From IMG/VR virus record IMGVR_UViG_3300045988_055361: a stretch of DNA of 35,948 nucleotides. The stretch is one strand, 5' to 3'. Shown here in pieces: positions 4,657-16,605 of the stretch (positions within the stretch are counted from its first letter, which is position 1; every line of letters begins with the position of its first letter). The notes under the pieces are model-generated. The model saw only the letters and a program-made list of their open reading frames with translations. It ran no database searches and was not told the DNA's origin. This DNA is from a virus. Position numbers and translations under genes: made by a program.

Positions 4657-5478
4657 ATGAAAAGCATATACGATATATTTAAGAATGAAAATCCGACGGT
4701 GGAAGCGATAAAGCGTATGCTTGCCACTTGTGATGAATCGGAGTATATCAAAGGTAATATGATTTACTGCAAAAAATGCAATGAGCCACGAAGAGAATGG
4801 CTGTCGCTGATTGGTGGATATGTTCCAGTGATGTGTTCATGCATGATTGCAGAGCAAAAGAAACAGGACAGACTGGCACGAATTGAAAAATACAGGAACA
4901 CAGGCTTTCCTGACAGAGGACTTCAGAAATGCCGATTTGATAACGACGATCATAAGTCAAAGAAGGCTAGCGACATGTGTAGGAATTATGCCAAAAAATT
5001 TGAAGATTTCAGAAAAGCAGGTAAAGGGCTTATTCTGTTTGGCGGAGTTGGAACAGGCAAGACGTTTCTTGCATCATGCATTGCAAATGAATTGATTGAC
5101 AATGGTATGCCGTGTCTTGTGACAAATTTTGCACGTATCATCAATACATTGCAGGGAATGTATGAAGGAAAGCAGAAATATCTGGACAGCCTGAACGAGT
5201 TTGATCTTCTGGTCATTGATGATCTGGGGATTGAGCGAAACACGGAGTTCGTAAACGAGCTGGTGTATAACATCATTGATGCAAGATACAGAAGCGGAAA
5301 GCCGATGATCATTACAACGAATCTTAAATATTCAGATCTGTACCATACAGAAGATACAAGCAAAGCCAGAATCTACAGCCGTATTATTGAAATGTGTCTT
5401 CCTGTACTTGTCAGCGGAGAGGATAGAAGAAAGAGCAAGATGCAGGACTCAAGACTGATGGATATATTAAATGGTTAA
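4657..5478 (+). CDS. DnaC/IstB-like AAA+ ATPase (helicase loader) with an N-terminal Cys-rich region
   Basis: Walker A (LFGGVGTGKTFLASCIANE), Walker B (FDLLVIDDLGIE) and sensor-like PMIITTNL. The N-terminus carries CKKCN...MCSC. AGGAGG RBS. Confidence 0.85.
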   Translation: MKSIYDIFKNENPTVEAIKRMLATCDESEYIKGNMIYCKKCNEPRREWLSLIGGYVPVMCSCMIAEQKKQDRLARIEKYRNTGFPDRGLQKCRFDNDDHKSKKASDMCRNYAKKFEDFRKAGKGLILFGGVGTGKTFLASCIANELIDNGMPCLVTNFARIINTLQGMYEGKQKYLDSLNEFDLLVIDDLGIERNTEFVNELVYNIIDARYRSGKPMIITTNLKYSDLYHTEDTSKARIYSRIIEMCLPVLVSGEDRRKSKMQDSRLMDILNG

Positions 5479-7471: not shown

Positions 7472-7735
7472 ATGAAACTAAATGAATTATTAACTAACAT
7501 CAAAGGAAAAATTCCTATCATTCTAAAGATAAATGATCTCGAAATTGATGCTGTGACTTTTCGAGGAACTAAGTCATCTGTATGTTTATCAGAGGAATAT
7601 ACAAAAGGCAAAAAAACATACGGCAATGCAATCGTAACTAACGTTGGTATTGCGGAAGAAGCATCAGAACCTCATATTCTAATTGAGGCAGAAACCACAA
7701 CGTGGCGATGGACTAAAAAGGAGTGGATTAAATAA
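7472..7735 (+). CDS. Hypothetical protein (87 aa)
   Basis: ATG at 7472 preceded by GAGGTGG. The track ORF extends back to 7352. Confidence 0.5.
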   Translation: MKLNELLTNIKGKIPIILKINDLEIDAVTFRGTKSSVCLSEEYTKGKKTYGNAIVTNVGIAEEASEPHILIEAETTTWRWTKKEWIK

Positions 7736-7736
7736 C

Positions 7737-7892
7737 ATGAATAACTATTTAACAAAAAAAGTAGTCTACTTCACTTATCATCAGTTTTTGAACGAACTGG
7801 AAGAATTGAAAAAGAAATATTACGTTATTGGCTACACTGTCAAGTCACAAGAAAATACTGCAGATGTTCAGCTAATCGAAAAATATATATAA
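7737..7892 (+). CDS. Hypothetical small protein (51 aa)
   Basis: ATG at 7737 preceded by AAAGGAGTGG. Reads MNNYLTKKVVYFTYHQFLNELEELKKKYYVIGY... Confidence 0.45.
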   Translation: MNNYLTKKVVYFTYHQFLNELEELKKKYYVIGYTVKSQENTADVQLIEKYI

Positions 7893-8069
7893 AATATAAG
7901 TATATCCCTATATTGATATACCAATTAAAAAAACATTAGTTACACGGACTAATCAAAACGTGGCTCATAAGAAAATTCTATTAAATACCTATTTAGATTT
8001 TGTTTCTATAATCTCATTTTCAATATAGGGATTCATTGATATTTACGAATGATAAAGGAATGATTTTGA

Positions 8070-8255
8070 ATGAAAAAATTGAATAAAAACATGGCGTTAT
8101 GCCTTTTATCAGACATATGTATATTAGTTATTCTATTTTCTATGATAACAACAGGCAATAACTGGAATTCAATAGAAGTTAAAAGATACTTCTGCGGTTC
8201 TCTGTTCATGAATATGCTGTTCGTGCAGTATTTTCTTGTTACAGGAGGCAGATAG
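8070..8255 (+). CDS. Hypothetical membrane protein (61 aa)
   Basis: Two hydrophobic segments. Weak AAAGGA RBS. Confidence 0.4.
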   Translation: MKKLNKNMALCLLSDICILVILFSMITTGNNWNSIEVKRYFCGSLFMNMLFVQYFLVTGGR

Positions 8256-8256
8256 C

Positions 8257-8484
8257 ATGAAAACTATTAAAGTTTATGAAAAGATGTTGAAAGCAATGCT
8301 TGAATTGCTTTATAAAACAAGTGATTGTTTAGCTATAAAAATAGCATTGGCAGACATAAATATGGAAGAATATCCACCTTGCAATATGGGAGAATGTGAT
8401 GAAGCATTTTGTCCATGTTGCAATGCTAAAAATTTATTCAAATATTTAACAGATCAGTGGGAGTATGGAGAATATGATGATTAA
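8257..8484 (+). CDS. Hypothetical Cys-rich protein (75 aa)
   Basis: AGGAGG RBS at 8243-8248 and ATG at 8257. Carries a CNMGECDEAFCPCCN cluster. Confidence 0.5.
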   Translation: MKTIKVYEKMLKAMLELLYKTSDCLAIKIALADINMEEYPPCNMGECDEAFCPCCNAKNLFKYLTDQWEYGEYDD

Positions 8485-8822
8485 GGTAGATGAAAAGAAA
8501 TTAGATGCACTATTAGAAAATAAACAAAGTATAAAAGAATGGCTTAAAGAGGAAGATTAATTATATGGATATTATTGGAATATTACTCGTAGCAGTATCA
8601 ATAGTTTTGATAGCAATCGGATGCTTTTGGAAAGATAACTAAATAAATATAAAAAAATGGCTCGTGAAGTCGTTCGAGGGTGTCAGCACAAAACGCAATA
8701 CTTATAATATGACTTATAATTTCCCAATACTTTTACTGAAAATCGTTTCTCCTAATACTTAGTGTTGGCATTCTCAAACGACTTCATGAGTTAGATAACT
8801 ATATATAAATGAGAGGTAAAAA

Positions 8823-8993
8823 ATGGCAAAACTTGTGAAAATGAAGTACAAAACGCTCGGTGGTGATATAAAGGTCAACACGTATAATGCGACAATATCA
8901 AAAAAGATTGTGGCTGAATCTGGACTTGATCCTGAAAAAGAAATCACAGTGAAGGCAGAAAACGGAAAAATTATTATCGAGCAAAAAAAATAA
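8823..8993 (+). CDS. AbrB/SpoVT/MazE-like swapped-hairpin DNA-binding protein (56 aa; below the ORF-track cut-off)
   Basis: GAGAGG RBS and ATG at 8823. The segment ATISKKIVAESGLDPEKEITVKAENGKIIIEQKK fits the AbrB-type 'IPKxxxxxLGLxxGDxVxIxxxxGxIII' pattern. Confidence 0.55.
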   Translation: MAKLVKMKYKTLGGDIKVNTYNATISKKIVAESGLDPEKEITVKAENGKIIIEQKK

Positions 8994-9007
8994 AAGAATG
9001 GCAAAGA
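8964..9007 (+). repeat. Direct repeat, left copy (44 bp, 2 mismatches; 35-bp exact core 8973-9007) bracketing the modification cassette
   Basis: GGAAAAATTATTATCGAGCAAAAAAAATAAAAGAATGGCAAAGA. This covers the 3' end of the AbrB-like gene, its stop, a spacer and ATGGCAAAG of the next gene. Confidence 0.9.
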
Positions 9008-9936
9008 AATATGTGGTAAATTATATGGAAGAAAATGAATTATTACTATTCGACAGAATAGAAATGATAAAAAAGACAATCAAGAAATATGGAGAAGCAA
9101 ATTTCTATATTTCTTTTTCAGGTGGTAAAGACAGTACAGTATTACATCATTTAATTGATGAAGCGATACCTGATAACAAAATTCCTAGAGTATTCATTAA
9201 TACAGGGATTGAATACAGTGAAATACGGAAGTTTGTTGAGACATTAAAAGAAAACGATTGTAGATTTGTTATCTTCAATTCAGGAATAAATATAAAAGAA
9301 ATGCTAAATGAAAAAGGATATCCGTTTAAATCTAAAGAGCATAGTTGCAAGCTATCAATGTTCCAAAAGAAGGGAACGGAAACAAAATCTGTAAGTAAAT
9401 ATATCAACGAAAAGAGTTTTGGATGTCCTAAAATTCTGAAATATCAATTTACAGATGAATTTGATTTAAAGGTTAGCGACAGATGTTGCTACGAATTAAA
9501 GAAACATCCAATACAACGATATGAAAAGGAATCAGGAAGAAGCATTTCAATACTTTGCTTAAGAATGAGTGAGGGTGGTCAAAGAGCAAATCACGGAGGA
9601 TGTGTTGTGTTTAACAACAACCGTGAGTTGAAAAAGTTCAAGCCTTTAAATCCATGTGATGATGATTTTATCGAATGGTACATAGAAAGAAATGAGATTG
9701 AATTGTGTAAATTGTATTATCCACCTTACAACTTTAAGAGAACAGGTTGTAAAGGGTGTCCATATTCAATAAATCTTCAAGAACAACTTGAGGTTATGAA
9801 GAAATACTTCCCAAACGAGCGTAAGCAATGCGAATTGATTTGGAAACCTGTTTATGACGAGTACAGAAGAATCGGATACAGGTTGAAAAGCCAGCATTAT
9901 GATTCAGAGCTGTTTCCAGAAGGAGAATCTCAATGA
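8998..9936 (+). CDS. PAPS-reductase-family (PP-loop ATPase, DndC/IbrA-like) protein
   Basis: PP-loop SFSGGKDSTVL, and Cys clusters CCYELKKHP and RTGCKGCPYS. Confidence 0.8.
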   Translation: MAKKYVVNYMEENELLLFDRIEMIKKTIKKYGEANFYISFSGGKDSTVLHHLIDEAIPDNKIPRVFINTGIEYSEIRKFVETLKENDCRFVIFNSGINIKEMLNEKGYPFKSKEHSCKLSMFQKKGTETKSVSKYINEKSFGCPKILKYQFTDEFDLKVSDRCCYELKKHPIQRYEKESGRSISILCLRMSEGGQRANHGGCVVFNNNRELKKFKPLNPCDDDFIEWYIERNEIELCKLYYPPYNFKRTGCKGCPYSINLQEQLEVMKKYFPNERKQCELIWKPVYDEYRRIGYRLKSQHYDSELFPEGESQ

Positions 9937-10631
9937 AACTCTATAACATGAATTGTTTGAATTATCTGCAATCAGAACAATTCGTTAAAGACGTGATGGG
10001 AGGGCAACCTATTATTGTCACCGACCCTCCATTCAACATTGGGTATCACTATAGAACCTACAAAGACATGATGAAAGAGCAAGATTATTTAGACTTCCTA
10101 AATAAAGTGCTCACGATTAATAAAACTCCGTACGTTGTTATTCATTATCCTGAATCACTCTATAAGATTGCATTATTCAACGGTGAGACTCCTTCTAGAG
10201 TCTGCTCATGGGTGTATAACTCGAACACTGCTAAACAACACCGTGACGTAGCTTTCTTCGGTGTAGAGCCTAATTTTAAACAGGTGTTACAACCGTATAA
10301 GAATCCAACGGATAAACGAATTATGAAACGTATTGCGGAAGGCAAATTAGGATGCAAACTCTATGACTGGTGGAATATCAATCAGGTCAAGAACGTGTCG
10401 AAATCAAAAACAAAACACCCTTGTCAAATGCCTGTCGAGGTCATGAAAAATATCGTAGGTGTACTTCCTAAAAACTCCATCATAATCGACCCTTTCATGG
10501 GTAGCGGAACAACTGGTGTTGCTTGTAAAGAATTAGGGTATGAGTTTATCGGATGTGAAATTGATACAGAGTATTTCAATATAGCAAAAGAAAGATTGGA
10601 GAACATTTCGGTCGAAAAAAATCACGAGTGA
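9933..10631 (+). CDS. DNA methyltransferase, N6A/N4C beta-class (N6_N4_Mtase family)
   Basis: The catalytic motif IV (IVTDPPFNIGY) precedes the AdoMet motif I (IIDPFMGSGTTGVACKELGYEFIGCEID). The start overlaps the upstream stop. Confidence 0.85.
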   Translation: MKLYNMNCLNYLQSEQFVKDVMGGQPIIVTDPPFNIGYHYRTYKDMMKEQDYLDFLNKVLTINKTPYVVIHYPESLYKIALFNGETPSRVCSWVYNSNTAKQHRDVAFFGVEPNFKQVLQPYKNPTDKRIMKRIAEGKLGCKLYDWWNINQVKNVSKSKTKHPCQMPVEVMKNIVGVLPKNSIIIDPFMGSGTTGVACKELGYEFIGCEIDTEYFNIAKERLENISVEKNHE

Positions 10632-10635
10632 AAAA

Positions 10636-10679
10636 GGGAAAATCATTATCGAGCAAAAAAAATAAAAGAATGGCAAAGA
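10636..10679 (+). repeat. Direct repeat, right copy (exact core 10645-10679)
   Basis: GGGAAAATCATTATCGAGCAAAAAAAATAAAAGAATGGCAAAGA. It encodes an orphan ...KGKIIIEQKK* tail followed by a 17-codon MAKRTWNRLRRSMKKHE* stub. Confidence 0.9.
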
Positions 10680-10715
10680 GAACGTGGAACAGATTAAGAA
10701 GGAGTATGAAGAAGC

Positions 10716-10907
10716 ATGAATAATTCACATGTATTAACAGAGGTTAAAGACATTCTTGTCAAAGATTTCATTCCAAAGTACAAAACTATCGAACTAATTG
10801 AAAGCAGAGAAATATTTCCGTTCGGAAAGCCTATAGGCTTGTTTAAATTTGAAAAAGTAAAAAAAAGACTACGGAGACAGAAAAATTGTTTCTGTTATGG
10901 ATTTTAA
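10716..10907 (+). CDS. Hypothetical protein (63 aa)
   Basis: ORF with AAGGAG 11 nt upstream. No motif. Confidence 0.4.
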   Translation: MNNSHVLTEVKDILVKDFIPKYKTIELIESREIFPFGKPIGLFKFEKVKKRLRRQKNCFCYGF

Positions 10908-10949
10908 TGATACTCACACAACGTCAATAGTTATAGAGGTACTTAAATC

Positions 10950-11312
10950 ATGAGTGGTGGAAGTCATAACTATATAGCAAATGAGATAGACGAAGCATTG
11001 TTTGGAAATTGTATAGACAATCGTTACAAAAATGTTTGTGATGAAAAAATCGCGAGAATTGCAAGAAACTTGAATCCGATGTATGACAGAGAACTATCTG
11101 AACTCATGGCAGATGTAATGTGTTTGCTACATGGCTTGGAATGGTTCGATTCATGCGATATCGGAGAAGAAAAATATAAAGAGTGTGTGAACAAATTCAA
11201 GGCAAAGTGGTTTACGAGAACAGAAAAAGATAGATTGAATAGCTATCTTGAAGATTTGAAAAGCTATTATGAAGAGTTAGTGGAAGAGTTAAAGGAAAAA
11301 GAAAATGATTAG
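10950..11312 (+). CDS. Hypothetical acidic protein (120 aa)
   Basis: AGAGG RBS and a long ORF. No motif. Confidence 0.55.
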   Translation: MSGGSHNYIANEIDEALFGNCIDNRYKNVCDEKIARIARNLNPMYDRELSELMADVMCLLHGLEWFDSCDIGEEKYKECVNKFKAKWFTRTEKDRLNSYLEDLKSYYEELVEELKEKEND

Positions 11313-11336
11313 CGATGTACATTGAAATTACGATTG

Positions 11337-11363
11337 AAAAAAAGGTATTAAAACCCTTTTTTT
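11337..11363 (+). terminator. Weak A/T-rich hairpin with a T-run (possible terminator between early and late regions)
   Basis: AAAAAAAGG-TATTAAAAC-CCTTTTTTTT. The stem is almost entirely A-T, so stability is doubtful. Confidence 0.3.
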
Positions 11364-11431
11364 TGGTAATAATTAGAGTATAATTACAGTAGAGAAAGAG
11401 GGCAAAAAATGTTAGCAAAGGAGGGCAAAAA

Positions 11432-11635
11432 ATGGTATTTTCCAATAAAACATATGACATTCTAAAGTGGGTGGCACTTGTAGGGACAAACGCATTTTCA
11501 GCGTTAATTATCACGCTCGGAAAAATCTGGGGATGGGATTGTGCAGAAGCGATTGCAGGAACTATTTCAGCAATTGGTACTTGCATTGGTGCATGTTTAC
11601 AGATAAGCTCAGCAAACTACAACAAGGGCGAATAA
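11432..11635 (+). CDS. Holin (Dp-1-type holin family)
   Basis: 67 aa. KTYDILKWVALVGTNAFSALIITLG...AIAGTISAIGTCIGACLQISSANYNKGE resembles the Dp-1 holin (YDVAKNVV...AITGTIALLATFAGTVLGVSSRNYQK). It lies upstream of the endolysin. Confidence 0.65.
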   Translation: MVFSNKTYDILKWVALVGTNAFSALIITLGKIWGWDCAEAIAGTISAIGTCIGACLQISSANYNKGE

Positions 11636-11983
11636 ATGAATCCTGAAACAAGCGTAAGCATAGCATTACTCATTTCTTTGACATCACTTGCATGTACGTT
11701 AATAAATACATTTGCAGGTGGAAAAAAACGTCAGGAAGAACAGGCAGAGCGTGAAAAGAATAGGCAGATGGACATCGAAAAAAATTTTGTAAAAATCAAC
11801 GTGAAACTTGACGAATTCTATGATACGTCAAAGAAAATGATGGCAGAAAATAGTGAAAAGACTGAACAGTTGAAAAATGTATCAGAACAACTCGTCCTTG
11901 TAACGGAACGTGTAAAAACACTATATAAATACAAGGATGATCACGAAGCAAGAATCAAGGAACTTGAAGATAAGGTCAAATAA
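11636..11983 (+). CDS. Membrane-anchored coiled-coil protein, putative lysis accessory or second holin component
   Basis: N-terminal TM segment ([22 protein letters not shown]) followed by a charged coiled coil. It lies between the holin and the endolysin. Confidence 0.4.
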
Positions 11984-11996
11984 GGAGGAACAAAGC

Positions 11997-13031
11997 ATGT
12001 ACGGTATTGATATTTCAAAACATAACGGCAATATTAATTTAGAGCCATATAAAGGGCAGTTTGTAATTATCAGGGTTGGATATGGTCACTTTCATCTGGA
12101 TGAAAAGTTTGAAAGAAACGTGGCTGAATGTAAAAGGTTAGGTATTCCATTTGGGGTTTACCATTATTCATATGCATTAAATGAAGCAGAAGCAGAGGCA
12201 GAAGCAAGAGGAGTGCTTAATGCAATTGCAAAATACAAGAATGATATCAAGGTTGGAGTATGGTTTGATATGGAGGATGCAGACGGATATAAAAAGAAGC
12301 ACGGCTTCAAGTTCTCTAATTCAACAATTGCGCCGATTTGTTTTAAGTTTTGTAAGATGATTGAGGATGCAGGATATTATTCAGGCATTTACACTTCTAG
12401 TTCATGGCTTGACTATGTAAAAGGTTTAAATGATAGATTTGATAAATGGGTTGCTAATTGGGGGAAGAATGATGGTACACAGCACACAAACACTTCTCAA
12501 TATGGAACATTACAGCAGTACACTTCTAAACCATTAGACAAAGATGTAATGTATGCAGACCTTTCAAGATATTCAAGAGGTAACACAACACAACCTCAGC
12601 CAAAACCAATTGATCAGATTGCTAATGAAGTAATTGCAGGGCAATGGGGTGATGGAGCTGACAGAAAGAAACGCTTAACCGATGCAGGATATGACTACAA
12701 TGCTGTTCAGAACGCAGTGAATGCAAAGCTGACAAAGAAATCTAATGAAGAGATTGCACAGGAAGTCATTGCAGGAAAGTGGGGCAATGGTGATGATCGC
12801 AGACAGCGCTTAACAAGTGCAGGATATAACTACACAGCAATACAAGCAATTGTTAGTAAGTTAATGAATGCTAACAAAGCAAGCGAAGCAGTATATTACA
12901 CTGTTAAGAGTGGCGATACATTAAGTAGCATTGCTTCTAAATACGGAACAACATATCAGAAGTTAGCAAAGATCAATGGTATTGCTAATCCAAACAAGAT
13001 ATATACTGGACAGCGTTTAAGAGTGAAGTAA
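11997..13031 (+). CDS. Endolysin: GH25 muramidase + 2 CW_7 repeats + C-terminal LysM
   Basis: GH25 N-terminus ([15 protein letters not shown]...VIIRVGYG...GVYHYSYA...WFDMED). Two CW_7 repeats ([34 protein letters not shown] / [34 protein letters not shown]). LysM segment ([30 protein letters not shown]...IYTGQRLRV). AAGGAGG RBS. Confidence 0.9.
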
Positions 13032-13411
13032 TGGCACAAGGCTATTATTCATGTAGTAGATGTGGGAAGATACATCCGAAAGGATATGTCTGTCATGTAG
13101 ATAAGAAGCACTACAAGTACAGCTACAAAGAATCAAGACTGAGAAGCAAGAGCGCATGGACAGAGAAGAGCAAACAGATTAGAGAAGATGCAAACTATCT
13201 ATGTGAAGTGTGCAAAGACAAAGGCATATATAACTACAGAAATGTAGAAGTACATCACATAGAGAAGTTGAAAGACAATCCAGACTTATGGTTGGATGAT
13301 GATAACCTGATATGCTTATGCAAAGACTGTCACAGGTTAGCTGATGCAGGAATGATTGACAAAGAGTATTTGAAGAAGCTAGCAAGGCAGAGAATAGACA
13401 GGCTTAAATGA
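13031..13411 (+). CDS. HNH endonuclease (terminase-associated type)
   Basis: CEVCKDKG...VEVHHIEKL...DDDNLICLCKDCHR, plus an N-terminal CSRCGK...C. Located just upstream of the cos/terminase region. Confidence 0.85.
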   Translation: MAQGYYSCSRCGKIHPKGYVCHVDKKHYKYSYKESRLRSKSAWTEKSKQIREDANYLCEVCKDKGIYNYRNVEVHHIEKLKDNPDLWLDDDNLICLCKDCHRLADAGMIDKEYLKKLARQRIDRLK

Positions 13412-13506
13412 TCCCCCCCATGGTAACGGGCATTGTCAGGTGTTACACCAAGATGAAACGCTCATACGCAAGAACACAAAAATAATAAAATACTAAGATT
13501 TTTTGG

Positions 13507-13551
13507 AAAAACGGCTAAATTAACGCTATAATGTGAGCATAAGCCGTTTTT
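13507..13551 (+). terminator. Hairpin (10-bp stem AAAAACGGCT/AGCCGTTTTT, 25-nt loop) with a T-run; possible terminator after HNH
   Basis: Stem arms at 13507-13516 and 13542-13551. The loop is unusually large and contains CTATAAT. Confidence 0.35.
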
Positions 13552-13639
13552 TGTTTCAAAAAGAAGCGAAAATCATGCGAAAGTGTTCCACGTGGAACAT
13601 GAGCGGGCGATATAAGAAAGGAAGGGAATAAAAATGTGA

Positions 13640-13768
13640 AACAAGAGAATCAATATCGTTTATAAGAAAGTCGATGACTTAATTCATTACGAGAACAATC
13701 CGTGAAACAATGATGAAGCTGTTGACTCTTAGGCTTGCTGATAACAAAGTCGGAGAAATTGGCTAAAA
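13640..13768 (+). pseudogene. Remnant of the 5' end of a ParB-domain (ParB-methyltransferase-type) gene
   Basis: Reads KRINIVYKKVDDLIHYENNP*NNDEAVDS*. This matches the canonical ParB N-terminus (Y-x-x-N-P-R-x-N-D-x-A-V) with TGA in place of the Arg codon. A frame change and further stops follow (..LADNKVGEIG*). There is no start codon. Confidence 0.55.
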
Positions 13769-13821
13769 AAGGCCTTAAATTAAATAAAAGCATCATGTGA
13801 TGGTTTGAAAAGGAGAATGAG

Positions 13822-14019
13822 ATGAAAATGACAAATAAGAACCTAAGTTTTAAAAGAATAGGTGCTTCAAGTGCTGCAAGTTGGGCTTGGGGAACATCTT
13901 TAATCATGGGACAACAAATAGCTCAAGAGAAAGGTATAATCGCATGGATTATATGGGCTGTTTGTAATACCTTAACGCTTGCATTATTTGGATGGCTATA
14001 TAACAATAAAAAAATATGA
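13822..14019 (+). CDS. Hypothetical 2-TM membrane protein (65 aa), possibly a truncated fragment of a larger membrane protein
   Basis: AAGGAG RBS 6 nt upstream. Reads GASSAASWAWGTSLIMG...IIAWIIWAVCNTLTLALFGWL. This is the first gene of the AT-rich block. Confidence 0.45.
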   Translation: MKMTNKNLSFKRIGASSAASWAWGTSLIMGQQIAQEKGIIAWIIWAVCNTLTLALFGWLYNNKKI

Positions 14020-14542
14020 AAATAAAAATATATTAGAACCTTTAGAAAATGTTAAATTTGTTGATAGAGATTTATTAAAACCAAATAATTACAACCCAAA
14101 TAAAGTATCAGAACAAAATCTTGAATTATTAGTTCAGTCTATATTAGTAAATGGTTGGACTATGCCAATAGTTATAAGACCTGATTATACAATTATAGAT
14201 GGTTTTCATAGATGGACTGTATCAGGTAGAGAGCCATTAAAAACATTATTAAAAAATAAAGTTCCAGTTGTTATTGTAGACCATAAAGATCATGCAGAAG
14301 ATGTTTATGGAACTATTACACATAATAGAGCGAGGGGAACTCATTTATTAGAACCAATGAAAGCAATTGTGAAAGAATTATTAGATGAAGGAAAATCAAC
14401 AAAAGAAATATGTAAGGAATTAGGAATGAAACCAGAAGAAGTATTTAGATTATCTGATTTCACAAGGGAAGATTTTTTAAAAATGATGATTAAGGATCAA
14501 AAGACTCATAATAAATCATATCAAATAAAAAATTTCAAGTAA
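13979..14542 (+). CDS. ParB/Srx-like nuclease-domain protein (IbrB-like)
   Basis: NYNPNKVSEQNLELLVQSILVNGWTMPIVIRPDYTIIDGFHRW...THNRARGTH. There is no in-frame ATG near the 5' end: TTG at 13979/13988 are the only candidates and there is no obvious SD. It overlaps the upstream ORF by 41 nt. Confidence 0.7.
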   Translation: MHYLDGYITIKKYENKNILEPLENVKFVDRDLLKPNNYNPNKVSEQNLELLVQSILVNGWTMPIVIRPDYTIIDGFHRWTVSGREPLKTLLKNKVPVVIVDHKDHAEDVYGTITHNRARGTHLLEPMKAIVKELLDEGKSTKEICKELGMKPEEVFRLSDFTREDFLKMMIKDQKTHNKSYQIKNFK

Positions 14543-14564
14543 AAAATTTATAGGAGGTGATAAT

Positions 14565-14936
14565 ATGGCAAAAATGACTTTAGCCGAACAAGCACAAGAA
14601 ATTTTAAGAATTGCAGAAGAAAGTGGAGTACAAAGTAATTACTTTTTTATAACTACTTTCAAAAGATATCAAATGCAATTAGTTATGTTATATGAATTAG
14701 AAAAATCTATAAAAGATGATGGAATATTAGTTGAAAAAGAATATGTTAAAGGTAGAAAAAATTTATATTCTAGTCCAGCAGTAAAAGATTATAATGCAAC
14801 AACAGATAGTGCAAATAGAACAGTAGCAACTCTTATGAAGATCATTAAAAATTATAATGTAAGTGATACAACCAAAGAAGAAGACCCGCTCATGAAGATT
14901 ATTAATGGTGGTGACGATGATGGCAGTGACGAGTAG
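14565..14936 (+). CDS. terS: Terminase small subunit (P27/Terminase_4-like)
   Basis: AGGAGGTGA RBS. FKRYQMQLVMLYELEKSIKDDGILVEKEY..GRKNLYSSPAVKDYNATTDSANRTVATLMKI fits the P27-family pattern. It lies immediately upstream of, and overlaps, terL. Confidence 0.65.
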   Translation: MAKMTLAEQAQEILRIAEESGVQSNYFFITTFKRYQMQLVMLYELEKSIKDDGILVEKEYVKGRKNLYSSPAVKDYNATTDSANRTVATLMKIIKNYNVSDTTKEEDPLMKIINGGDDDGSDE

Positions 14937-16605
14937 TAAGGCTTACGAATATTGCAAAAGCTCTATCAGGAAGAAAACAACTCCTAAATACGTCAAAAAG
15001 CAGATGCGAGATTGGATGCGAATTGCAGAAGGAAAAAACGCAAAGTACTTTGTATCTGAAAAAAAGGTTCAGCAGATTGAAAACATTCTGAAACTGCTTA
15101 TCATGCCAAAAGGATTGAAAGCAGGACAGTCTATGTATAAGTGTGCCACTGGCTATCAGTGGTTGATCTATACAGCCATGCTATGCACTGTATATCGTGA
15201 CAAGCCGAAAAAGCGAAGATATGAAACAGGGCTGTTGGAAATTTGCAGAAAAAATTTTAAAACGTACACAGTCGGAACAATCTTTATTATTCTGTTTTTG
15301 ACAGAGCCAAGGTTCTCAAAGTTCTTTTCAGTTGCGCCAGATGGTGCATTGTCGAGGGAAATAAAAGAAGCAATCTCAGATACAATCAAAAGCAGTCCGC
15401 TTATATATGAGTACAAAGGAACGAAGCGTTTCAAGCTGTTAAGGGACTACATTAAGTTCAAGCCGAATGAAAACACGTTGATTCCGTTAGCGTACAGTAA
15501 TAACCGTATGGACGGACGTATGCCGAATGCATTTATTGCAGATGAAGTTGGAGCATTGCCGAACGGTTATCCTGTTGAAGCCATGAGGTCTGGACAGCTT
15601 AACGTTGTTAACAAACTAGGGTTCGTTATCAGCACGAAATATCCGACAATCGACAATCCTTTCGAGGACGAGGTTGCATATGCCAAGAAGGTTCTTGATG
15701 GCATTGAGAAAGACGATACTATTTTTGCACTTCTATATGAGCCAGACAAATCAGACTGGGAAACAGACAATCTTGTTTTGAAACAGGCGAATCCTGCGTC
15801 ATTGGAAATCCCTGAAATTTGGAATGATCTTGTAAAGAAAAGAGCAAGAGCCATTGCCATTGAGAACGAGCGAGAAAACTTTGTTACAAAGCACTGCAAT
15901 ATTATCTATCAAGGTCAGGGAACTGAAACATTCATTGATGTTAAAGATGTTCAGGCGTGCAAGGTTGCAGATATTGATTGGTCTGGAAGGGTTGTATATT
16001 TAGGCGTTGACCTTTCAGAATCAAACGATAATACATCTGTTGCCATGGTTTCTGTAGATGATGATGATAACATTCTTGCAGAAAGTTTTGCGTTCATTCC
16101 ATCAGACAGAATCACAGAAAAGACCATATCAGAACGTGTGAACTATCAGGAACTATTGAAGAGTGGAAAGGTGATTGCGTGTGGTGACAGAGTTATTTCT
16201 TATGCGTTTGTTGAACAGTTCATATTGAGTCTTGAGAGCCGTTATAACGTGCAAATTCAGGCAATTGGATATGACAGGTGGAATGCATTGTCTACGGCAC
16301 AAAAACTCGCAAATGAGGGATATAACACGGTTCAGATAAAGCAGTATTCAAGTGTCTTGCATTCTCCGACAAAGAGGATGAAAGAGGCAATCCTTACGCA
16401 GAAATTCAAATACACAGAGAACAAACTTCTTGAAATCAATTATCAGAATGCGAAATGTGCATATGACACAAACAAAAATATGTATGTCAACAAGAAAAAG
16501 AGCAACGGCAAAGTTGATATGGTTGTATCACTTATCAATGCGATTTACCTTCTTGAGCAGGATTATTTCTTGAATGAAGGTGACTTCACATTCCAGATGA
16601 TTTAA
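14905..16605 (+). CDS. terL: Terminase large subunit (Terminase_1 family)
   Basis: 566 aa. GYQWLIYTAMLCTVY...RRYETGLLEICRKNFKTYTVG (the RKNGKS-like Walker A region), IADEVGAL (Walker B) and a C-terminal RNaseH-like nuclease region (YLGVDLSESNDNTSVAMV...GYDRWNA). ATG at 14917/14920 follows GGTGGTGA and may be the true start. Confidence 0.9.
   Translation: MVVTMMAVTSSKAYEYCKSSIRKKTTPKYVKKQMRDWMRIAEGKNAKYFVSEKKVQQIENILKLLIMPKGLKAGQSMYKCATGYQWLIYTAMLCTVYRDKPKKRRYETGLLEICRKNFKTYTVGTIFIILFLTEPRFSKFFSVAPDGALSREIKEAISDTIKSSPLIYEYKGTKRFKLLRDYIKFKPNENTLIPLAYSNNRMDGRMPNAFIADEVGALPNGYPVEAMRSGQLNVVNKLGFVISTKYPTIDNPFEDEVAYAKKVLDGIEKDDTIFALLYEPDKSDWETDNLVLKQANPASLEIPEIWNDLVKKRARAIAIENERENFVTKHCNIIYQGQGTETFIDVKDVQACKVADIDWSGRVVYLGVDLSESNDNTSVAMVSVDDDDNILAESFAFIPSDRITEKTISERVNYQELLKSGKVIACGDRVISYAFVEQFILSLESRYNVQIQAIGYDRWNALSTAQKLANEGYNTVQIKQYSSVLHSPTKRMKEAILTQKFKYTENKLLEINYQNAKCAYDTNKNMYVNKKKSNGKVDMVVSLINAIYLLEQDYFLNEGDFTFQMI

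Follow-up and report, generated by a model that had tools for sequence, protein, structure and literature searches.

A PAPS-reductase-like gene and a DNA methyltransferase gene between direct repeats in a gut siphophage: a probable product of short-homology recombination in an accessory-gene slot

How did two candidate DNA-modification genes come to lie between nearly identical direct repeats in the genome of a gut phage? The question is raised by the IMG/VR virus record IMGVR_UViG_3300045988_055361, a stretch of 35,948 nt that we call the window, in which a gene for a PP-loop protein of the 3'-phosphoadenosine 5'-phosphosulfate (PAPS) reductase family (8998-9936) is followed by one for a β-class N6A/N4C DNA methyltransferase (9933-10631), with repeat copies at 8958-9007 and 10630-10679. 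A first-pass annotation, made from the sequence alone, had described a discrete two-gene cassette, inserted at a module boundary and bracketed by a duplicated gene junction. Our analysis leads to a different answer: the feature is a recombination scar in an accessory-gene hot spot, a known and fairly ordinary kind of phage mosaic evolution. We put at about 0.72 the probability that short-homology recombination between related phages built the block and that its genes most likely function in anti-restriction. The genes of the accessory region, the repeat copies, the joints and the elements that bound the region all lie on the + strand.

The repeat, first reported as 44 bp long, is genuine and extends a little further: its two copies agree at 47 of 50 nt, and the 35-nt exact core is confirmed at 8973-9007 and 10645-10679. 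The repeat is present twice in the 35.9-kb window, and 0 of 100 dinucleotide-preserving shuffles contained a match. In the left copy, the genuine 3' end of a 56-aa AbrB-like gene (8823-8993; protein end ..ENGKIIIEQKK*, allele GAAAACGGAAAAATTATTATC) and its stop codon (8991-8993) are followed by a 4-nt spacer and the ATG at 8998, the linker reading TAAAAGAATGGCAAAGA. The 3' end was correctly recognized in the first-pass annotation; the ATG at 8998 is not the start used by the PAPS-like family, all homologs of which start at M10 (nt 9025). The right copy begins inside the methyltransferase stop codon with an orphan AbrB tail (EKGKIIIEQKK*, 10630-10665; allele GAAAAAGGGAAAATCATTATC, as in the related loci L033, L036 and L048), after which come the same linker and an ATG at 10670. 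Here too the tail had been identified, and it is the short "MAKR" stub assigned to this copy that does not stand: the 17-codon ORF (10670-10723) is no gene stub and forms the native leader of the next gene, o63, with the ribosome-binding site GAAGGAG, identical in the empty site L006. The ORF is not conserved, because its ATG reads AAG in L005, L037 and L052.

Exact scans of IMG/VR and of GTDB genomes for the 35-nt core returned nothing; the core differs by at least 1 nt in relatives, and protein-guided searches therefore replaced these scans. Exact look-ups of the 56-aa protein sequence then yielded contigs that encode the identical protein without the block. Such empty sites with a single repeat copy, which the first-pass annotation had suggested looking for, were found in L005, L006, L052, L036, L037 and L048, where one copy joins the AbrB-like gene directly to the o63 leader. 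In L005 and L006, this copy runs into GAGAACGTGGAACAGATT...ATGAATAATTCACATG, the o63 leader and start, and L006 is identical to the right copy of the window and its flank over ~120 nt. The closest overall relative, L052, is also empty and is 92% identical in the left flank and 94% in the right. Because empty sites exist, the 1,672-bp block is an insertion relative to the sister phages, as had been proposed; what fails is its description as a discrete cassette of two genes, since it contains three novel joints and both gene starts have been modified.

The two copies are not simple duplicates of one target. All three differences between them are natural alleles of the AbrB-like tail, the right copy reading as in L033, L036 and L048, where GAAAAAGGGAAAATCATTATCGAGC is the natural tail allele (L052 has GGGAAAATC), and the left copy carrying GAAAACGGAAAAATTATTATC, another natural allele, as in L021 and L035; the linked combination GGG + ATC is present in L033, L036, L048 and L052. 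Because all three differences match natural alleles, the sequences point to two parental phages as the sources of the copies rather than to a target-site duplication, contrary to the duplicated junction first envisaged. Moreover, the repeat covers the best-conserved part of the anchor protein, the C-terminal ENGKIIIE, and so provides homology between diverged phages: E46 and G48-E53 are invariant even in relatives that are only 39-51% identical.

Slippage or template switching within a single lineage, during the acquisition of foreign DNA, would likewise give a staggered duplication around an insertion and would need no second AbrB-carrying parent; the A/T-rich homopolymer runs in the repeat favour such slippage, and the three differences would then be later point mutations. 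We regard this origin as unlikely. Each of the three differences corresponds to an allele that segregates in the family, the linked GGG + ATC pair among them, and the 35-nt core together with the first ~120 nt past the right copy is identical to L006, implying little decay since the duplication.

Two-parent recombination is also consistent with the structure of the block itself, in which three joints can be placed. At the first, J1 (9007/9008), the family linker ending in ..GGCAAAGA gives way to donor sequence AATATGTGGTAAATTAT upstream of the PAPS-like gene; in L026 and L030, the methyltransferase's own leader meets the AbrB stop at the same GGCAAA motif. A search for homologs of the PAPS-like protein gave 4,614 clusters at E <= 1e-20, and the 30 that were aligned all start at the window's M10 (MEENELLLFDR). 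Codons 1-9 (MAKKYVVNY) were thus created by J1, the linker ATG being in frame by chance, and likeness to the regions upstream of other PAPS genes begins only ~12 nt before 9025. At the second joint, J2 (~9936, in the ATGA stop/start overlap at 9933-9937), the PAPS-side ribosome-binding site GAAGGAG and an ATG are fused to methyltransferase codon 6/7. The native methyltransferase start in L026, L039 and L064 is MKEKTQKLYNMNCL (MKEKTQ...) behind its own AAAGGCAAAAAATATG leader; in the window, homology begins at AAACTCTATAAC, the native first five or six codons having been lost.

The third joint, J3 (10630-10638), is a 9-nt microhomology, GAAAAAGGG, common to the methyltransferase stop codon plus left terminator stem (in L064 and in a remnant in L005) and to a natural allele of the AbrB tail. 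In L064, the terminator (TGAAAAAGGGTATAAAAACC-T run) directly follows the methyltransferase stop, and in the window the same TGAAAAAGGG leads into AAAATCATTATCGAGC..., the tail of the anchor gene. L005, which has no methyltransferase gene, retains at its positions 1445-1476 a 32-nt piece of the methyltransferase 3' end, differing from window 10607-10638 at 1 position and fused to the terminator, and this remnant is a fossil of an earlier arrangement in which the methyltransferase stood last in the slot. By sequence comparison, the crossover would fall within these 9 nt.

An assembly chimera was considered as the origin of the repeat and rejected. The stretch shared by the J3 partners, 9 nt, is too short for a join made by a k-mer assembler, and the arrangement recurs in several assemblies. 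The identical PAPS-like protein is encoded in four contigs of 20-50 kb, all with the same neighbouring genes, and Logan k=31 contigs from run ERR414296 break within the 35-nt core, as a real repeat predicts.

The two enzyme genes have different histories. The methyltransferase gene is 92.6-94.3% identical at the nucleotide level to genes of sister phages, the same divergence as in the flanks, whereas the PAPS-like gene is only 85-87% identical to its best matches, and these are in unrelated phages. The nearest carriers are L009, a phi29-like podophage with a protein-primed polymerase, the 50-kb siphophages L012, L144 and L145, and L016; its occurrence in a phi29-like phage indicates that the PAPS gene moves between very different phage types. 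The L009 copy (1-920; 81-85% identical) is itself terminal, 45 nt from the end of an 18.8-kb contig. None of 39 family relatives has a PAPS gene in the corresponding slot, and the methyltransferase occurs there without it at three positions in sister phages (L026, L039 and L064). Co-occurrence is also rare more widely: a PAPS homolog lies within 4 kb of 3 of 80 methyltransferase loci, this methyltransferase family within 4 kb of 0 of 11 PAPS loci, and the two are adjacent in none of six neighbourhoods annotated with Pfam, although L012 has a methyltransferase 1.2 kb upstream. These counts led us to discard an obligate functional pair, and the notion of the two genes as a unit falls with the finding that the methyltransferase circulates alone and the closest PAPS homologs stand alone in unrelated phages.

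These observations bear equally on a transposon-like or att-like integration of a mobile cassette at the AbrB tail and linker, with a target-site duplication of ~44-50 bp. Exact flanking repeats, single-copy empty sites and a single linker that serves, like an attachment site, as the joint for many different modules are all features such a mechanism would produce. Nevertheless, the two enzymes are the only genes between the repeats, there is no transposase or integrase in or beside the block, and the sole recombinase is a serine integrase 22 kb away on the other strand. As a unit the block recurs in none of the 39 relatives, the 80 methyltransferase loci or the 11 PAPS loci; its genes differ in ancestry and have modified starts, its repeat copies differ at three sites matching two pre-existing alleles, and other modules join the linker at various points within ~20 nt. 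Target duplications made by known transposases are, furthermore, far shorter than 50 bp. We therefore rejected a transposon-like duplication and consider a mobile cassette of any such kind highly improbable.

The recombination reading gains its context from 39 surveyed IMG/VR loci with relatives of the 56-aa gene, across which the interval from this gene to the holin gene is an accessory region that is hypervariable throughout the family. The left anchor of this slot is the 56-aa gene, whose product plausibly has an AbrB/MazE(SpoVT)-type fold as judged from profile matches: 6 of 13 family members match PF04014 MazE_antitoxin (best 6e-6) and 11 of 13 match SymE_toxin (best 1.2e-4), to which the window protein itself scores 16.5 bits, below the gathering score of 29. 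The right anchor is a terminator-like hairpin, GAAAAAAAGGTATTAAAACCCTTTTTTTT (11335-11366), immediately ahead of the holin gene (11432); the hairpin is conserved in L005, L006, L026, L030 and L064, and its weak A/T-rich stem is absent from the list of an automated scan. Between these anchors, the window carries, beyond the block, o63 (10716-10907) and o120 (10950-11312; phrog_6724), a common cargo of the slot.

Eight relatives have no cargo, the AbrB-like gene leading directly to the holin gene (L023, L024, L027, L028, L031, L041, L042 and L044), and six carry o63 and o120 (L019, L034, L037, L046, L048 and L052); o63 alone, o120 alone or other small genes were found in further loci. The methyltransferase lies between the AbrB-like gene and o63 in L026, and between o63 and the terminator in L039 and L064 (L038 and L064 are opposite ends of one contig). 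Just past the anchor stop codon, the linker TAAA(AGAA)(A/T)GGCAAAGA contains the joints to at least 8 different downstream modules, with breakpoints spread across ~20 nt and not fixed at one position. Losses are also on record: L030 is a ~1.3-kb deletion derivative of an L026-like arrangement that has lost the methyltransferase, o63 and most of the last gene, and at its positions 5184-5300 the start codon of the methyltransferase and ~8 codons now run into the tail of the gene that stands last in the slot of an L026-like phage. Loss of the window block through recombination between its repeats is plausible; no deletion derivative of the window phage was found, L006 and L052 being distinct phages about 92-94% identical to it.

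Two observations concern o63. In several relatives (L026 6168-6190; L039 5390-5430; L025, L032, L036, L049 and L050) this gene ends in ATCGAGCAAAAA... (..IIEQK), much like the AbrB tail plus linker, so that an AbrB-tail-like boundary sequence seems to recur after a second gene and to travel with modules. In the window, an A8 run at ~10860-10867 truncates o63 to 63 aa, with no overlap of the o120 start, compared with A7 in L005, L006, L037 and L052 and 79-86 aa in relatives. The same A8 is present in L008, a Logan assembly from the same run, and could be either a real frameshift or a shared homopolymer error.

Taken together, the joints, alleles and slot contents are read most simply as the outcome of the following course, in which neither a transposon nor an integrase would have acted and the block would have been built by recombination, illegitimate or relaxed homologous, between related phages that were co-infecting or resident. 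A methyltransferase gene already circulating in the slot would have sat last, its stop codon running into the terminator stem. A PAPS gene from a more distant phage pool would then have been joined upstream, with J1 in the post-AbrB linker and J2 removing methyltransferase codons. Finally, a single unequal crossover at GAAAAAGGG between the methyltransferase end and the AbrB tail of a second phage (AbrB-o63-o120-terminator) would have produced a recombinant in which the original AbrB gene stays on the left and the AbrB tail and linker on the right come from the second parent, giving the 50-nt direct repeat. The ERF-type annealing protein encoded by the phage probably helped: single-strand annealing proteins (SSAPs) of the Erf family and Rad52-like type outperform RecA by far in recombining short, diverged homologies (De Paepe et al. 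2014, PMC3945230). The mosaicism described in that work, and the known hot spots of morons and anti-defence genes, resemble the window in that conserved anchors bound a variable slot, joints lie at gene boundaries with short homologies, and gains, losses and remnants occur among close relatives; the window phage encodes both ERF and a single-stranded DNA-binding protein (SSB). What distinguishes the window is a joint that left behind a 50-nt duplication in which both parental alleles survive and the crossover is readable to 9 nt, a scar nonetheless the same in kind.

What, then, do the two genes encode? Both assignments made in the first-pass annotation were borne out. The PAPS-like protein, a 312-aa ORF, matches PF01507 PAPS_reduct with 70.2 bits against a cut-off of 22.5 (E 3e-19) and phrog_424 with E 2e-29. 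Across 30 homologs, the PP-loop S41-G-G-K-D-S46 is invariant, as are the cysteines C163-C164 and C251xxC254, and C278 (QCELIW, 24 residues past the CxxC) is nearly so; C143, C202 and C237 are additional invariant cysteines. These features agree with the PP-loop/Fe-S-type enzyme proposed at first, as does the fold. An AlphaFold2 (AF2) model of good predicted quality (predicted local distance difference test 87.9, predicted template modelling (TM) score 0.83) gave Foldseek matches at the top that are all PP-loop enzymes, led by the adenosine 5'-phosphosulfate (APS)/PAPS reductases 2goy, 7lhr and 1sur (E ~1e-7, target TM 0.66-0.70), with the Fe-S tRNA thiolases TtuA and NcsA as the next neighbours. 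The comparison first suggested, with DndC, CysH, IbrA and BrxP, thus came out closest to CysH-type folds. The option of an IbrA-like regulator did not hold up: Pfam gives PF01507 only, with no DUF3440, and no ParB-like gene is adjacent, the nearest being ParB_N at 13979-14542, 3.3 kb away in the packaging module.

Stand-alone phage members of this family number >4,600 clusters at the E-value limit given above and come mostly from gut phages. Two close homologs, P0001 and P0002 (369 aa), have their first ~73 residues, including the PP-loop, in tandem duplicate, which may be a gene duplication or an assembly artefact. In L163 (4428-4880), a 65%-identical homolog lies directly upstream of a PF21825 "Sequestin" gene and close to dUTPase_2 and HNH genes, a neighbourhood that fits an anti-defence setting.

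Resemblance to assimilatory enzymes raises the alternative that the PAPS-like gene is an auxiliary metabolic APS/PAPS reductase gene for host sulphur assimilation and that shuffling in the slot brought it beside the methyltransferase by accident. The best structural matches are indeed assimilatory reductases (2goy, 7lhr and 1sur), and the CC...CxxC...C spacing presumably resembles the Fe-S ligands and catalytic cysteine of the APS reductase 2goy, with C278 as the likely equivalent of the catalytic cysteine of ECGLH. PHROG 424 is filed under auxiliary metabolic genes, a reading also used in the literature, and the rarity of the adjacency elsewhere would suit an accidental pairing. Sequence comparison tells differently. 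The protein is only 13-18% identical to CysH-type reductases and falls far below the curated cut-offs of TIGR00434, TIGR02055 and TIGR02057 (33.1 vs 165.1, 28.1 vs 235.3 and 17.2 vs 254.2 bits), with a partial NCBIfam alignment of residues 159-278 to the C-terminal half of CysH/APS reductases. Single-sequence and profile searches of the PDB gave PP-loop-level matches only, in which the Fe-S and catalytic cysteines could not be aligned to those of APS reductase. The protein also has ~90 extra residues and the further invariant C143, C202 and C237, and retains a canonical SGGKDS PP-loop. This motif is typical of DndC-type proteins, thiolases and QueC, which are adenylating ATP-pyrophosphatases, and is degenerate in CysH-type reductases, so that the window protein would belong with the former rather than with the latter. 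The genomic niche, an early/accessory region of phages beside HNH, dUTPase and Sequestin genes, and the demonstration that a PAPS-domain protein acts against Dnd (Piel et al. 2022) point the same way, and we judge the metabolic alternative to be quite improbable.

The methyltransferase, of 232 aa, matches PF01555 N6_N4_Mtase with 105.9 bits against a cut-off of 26.7 (E 4e-30) and PADLOC Type II methyltransferase models with E-values down to 1e-30; it is of the β class because motif IV, TDPPF (residues ~30-34), precedes motif I, FMGSGTT (~188-194). Orphan β-class methyltransferases of phages (CcrM/YhdJ-like) share with it the PF01555 domain and the lack of a cognate endonuclease nearby, and are usually read as serving self-protection from restriction; unlike them, the window gene has had its 5' end remodelled by recombination, and the G8 tract of sister alleles is interrupted. 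That homopolymer of G7-G8, at methyltransferase codons ~22-24 (L026 5261-5268; L039 5505-5512; L064 ~91-97), may be a phase-variable tract or a sequencing artefact; L026 has a +1 frameshift just upstream of it, and the window sequence at ~9993-10002 reads GATGGGAGGG.

With their ATGA overlap, the two genes would be co-transcribed and translationally coupled, and the most likely role of the pair would be to shield phage DNA from host restriction, the methyltransferase through base methylation and the PP-loop/Fe-S enzyme by countering or mimicking phosphorothioate-based (Dnd/Ssp/BREX-4-type) or related defences. The earlier statement that the role of a PAPS-reductase-like protein paired with a methyltransferase is not established is outdated: protein p0018 of Vibrio phage 44E38.1, a PAPS-domain::Dam fusion, is part of an anti-Dnd counter-defence and lets a sister phage escape host Dnd (Piel et al. 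2022 Nat Microbiol; preprint 10.1101/2021.05.05.442762). This fusion is the closest tested analogue of the window pair. In both cases, a PAPS-reductase-family domain and an adenine-type DNA methyltransferase occur in a small variable region of otherwise syntenic phages. Both also look chimeric, the Dam part of the fusion being 96% identical to the stand-alone methylase of a sister phage, as its authors noted (Piel et al. 2022), and the window methyltransferase 93-94% identical to those of sister phages. Exchange by recombination between related SSAP-encoding phages is a further trait common to the two. They differ in that the window has two separate, coupled genes, a β-class N6_N4 (PF01555) rather than a Dam/D12 enzyme, and a Gram-positive gut host rather than Vibrio; moreover, 44E38.1 is absent from the 34 phage records matched by tblastn, a result that lends no support to close homology between the PAPS parts. 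Another literature lead, JSS1_004 as a phage PAPS reductase that evades Dnd, was dropped, as this protein is a T7 gp0.7-like kinase and Piel et al. (2022) is the correct reference. PAPS reductases in variable or Aca-regulated phage regions have been put forward as candidate anti-defence genes (PMC13551039).

Likeness to the phosphorothioation proteins themselves is partial. DndC, SspD and BrxP share with the window protein a PP-loop ATP-pyrophosphatase core with SGGKDS, and its richness in cysteines is consistent with an Fe-S cluster. Unlike those systems, the window has no partner ATPase (DndD/SspC/BrxC), no DndE/SspB and no cysteine desulfurase, and the likeness is confined to the N-terminal half. 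Among the Pfam-annotated genes of this phage's contig and of six other neighbourhoods, no DndD/DndE, SspB/SspC or BrxC partner was found.

Several points weigh against recombination between related phages as the source of the block and against anti-restriction as its function. The allele argument is strong but not proof, since sites that are polymorphic in the family would also tolerate later mutations, and the A-rich 9-nt microhomology at J3 could be coincidental. The parent predicted to carry AbrB-PAPS-methyltransferase-terminator was not found, so that the order of the joints is a reconstruction, and recombination and deletion alike are read from assembled genomes rather than from read-level or experimental data. 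On the functional side, the protective role is deduced, and no Dnd, Ssp or BREX-4 system is known in the host. The DndC likeness first suggested gave no match of the PAPS-like protein to the PADLOC DndC models at E <= 0.01, and BrxP (46 bits) and SspD (26 bits) match only residues 14-117, the PP-loop half. Known phosphorothioation systems, finally, require a partner ATPase (PMC12914056), and none is evident in the window.

The slot opens with a long inverted-repeat element upstream of the AbrB-like gene (8658-8792), with ~31-bp arms around ~75 nt. A promoter-like site, GTGTCA-17-TATAAT (8680-8708), lies inside it, in the 260-nt gap upstream of the 56-aa gene. The element is present in 21 of 37 distinct upstream sequences of family loci, and its predicted RNA fold is stable (-47.2 kcal/mol, z -6.5). 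A covariation test on the 21 relatives detected zero compensatory pairs; the stem shows 28 one-sided G.U/G.C/A.U switches against ~5 broken pairs, along with a variable loop insertion of 13-16 nt. Candidate roles for the element are those of an RNase III-type processing stem, of a structured leader and of an invertible promoter.

As to the phage as a whole, the window represents a temperate siphophage of ~36 kb that infects a gut Firmicute, and the same phage is present as ENA scaffold ERZ28597509 scaffold_673 (35,881 bp). It encodes a large serine recombinase and a cI-type repressor for lysogeny and, besides ERF and SSB, DnaD-like and IstB-like proteins of recombination and replication. Downstream of the accessory region follow a Dp-1-type holin, a GH25/CW_7/LysM endolysin, HNH, ParB_N, terminase, portal, ClpP and capsid genes. 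The lysis cassette (11432-13031; the holin, a 115-aa ORF and the GH25+CW_7+LysM endolysin) sits between the early/accessory genes and the HNH-ParB_N-terminase packaging genes (13031-16605), not after the tail genes. Megablast of window positions 7500-12500 against GenBank phages gave zero matches; there is therefore no close cultured relative at the DNA level. A host search of GTDB genomes with the AbrB-like protein returned only relatives at 39-51% identity, in metagenome-assembled genomes of Eubacteriales, Clostridia and Lachnospiraceae. No tRNA genes were found in the window, and an Rfam scan of its whole length matched zero families.

A further and rather doubtful extension, which we offer tentatively, is that the stand-alone phage PAPS family consists of self-sufficient or host-hijacking PP-loop/Fe-S enzymes that install or mimic a sulphur mark on DNA, and that the window holds a nascent two-layer protective operon. 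If so, the mark would defeat the phosphorothioate-sensing defences common in gut Bacillota, with backbone or sulphur modification as one layer and base methylation as the other, and the operon would have arisen independently of the vibriophage PAPS::Dam fusion, as convergent evolution of the same counter-defence architecture.

The locus records module exchange at near-nucleotide resolution, with three joints, both parental alleles, empty sites, alternative placements, remnants and a deletion derivative, and thereby offers a natural test case for whether ERF-type annealing proteins drive the shuffling of accessory genes at short boundary homologies. It adds a second, independently assembled pairing of a PAPS reductase-like protein with a methyltransferase to the single case studied experimentally. 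Stand-alone phage "PAPS reductases" are often annotated as auxiliary genes of sulphur metabolism, a label against which the canonical PP-loop and the genomic niche described here both speak. In a large family of gut phages, the hot spot that extends from the AbrB-like gene to the terminator is a source of candidate anti-defence genes.

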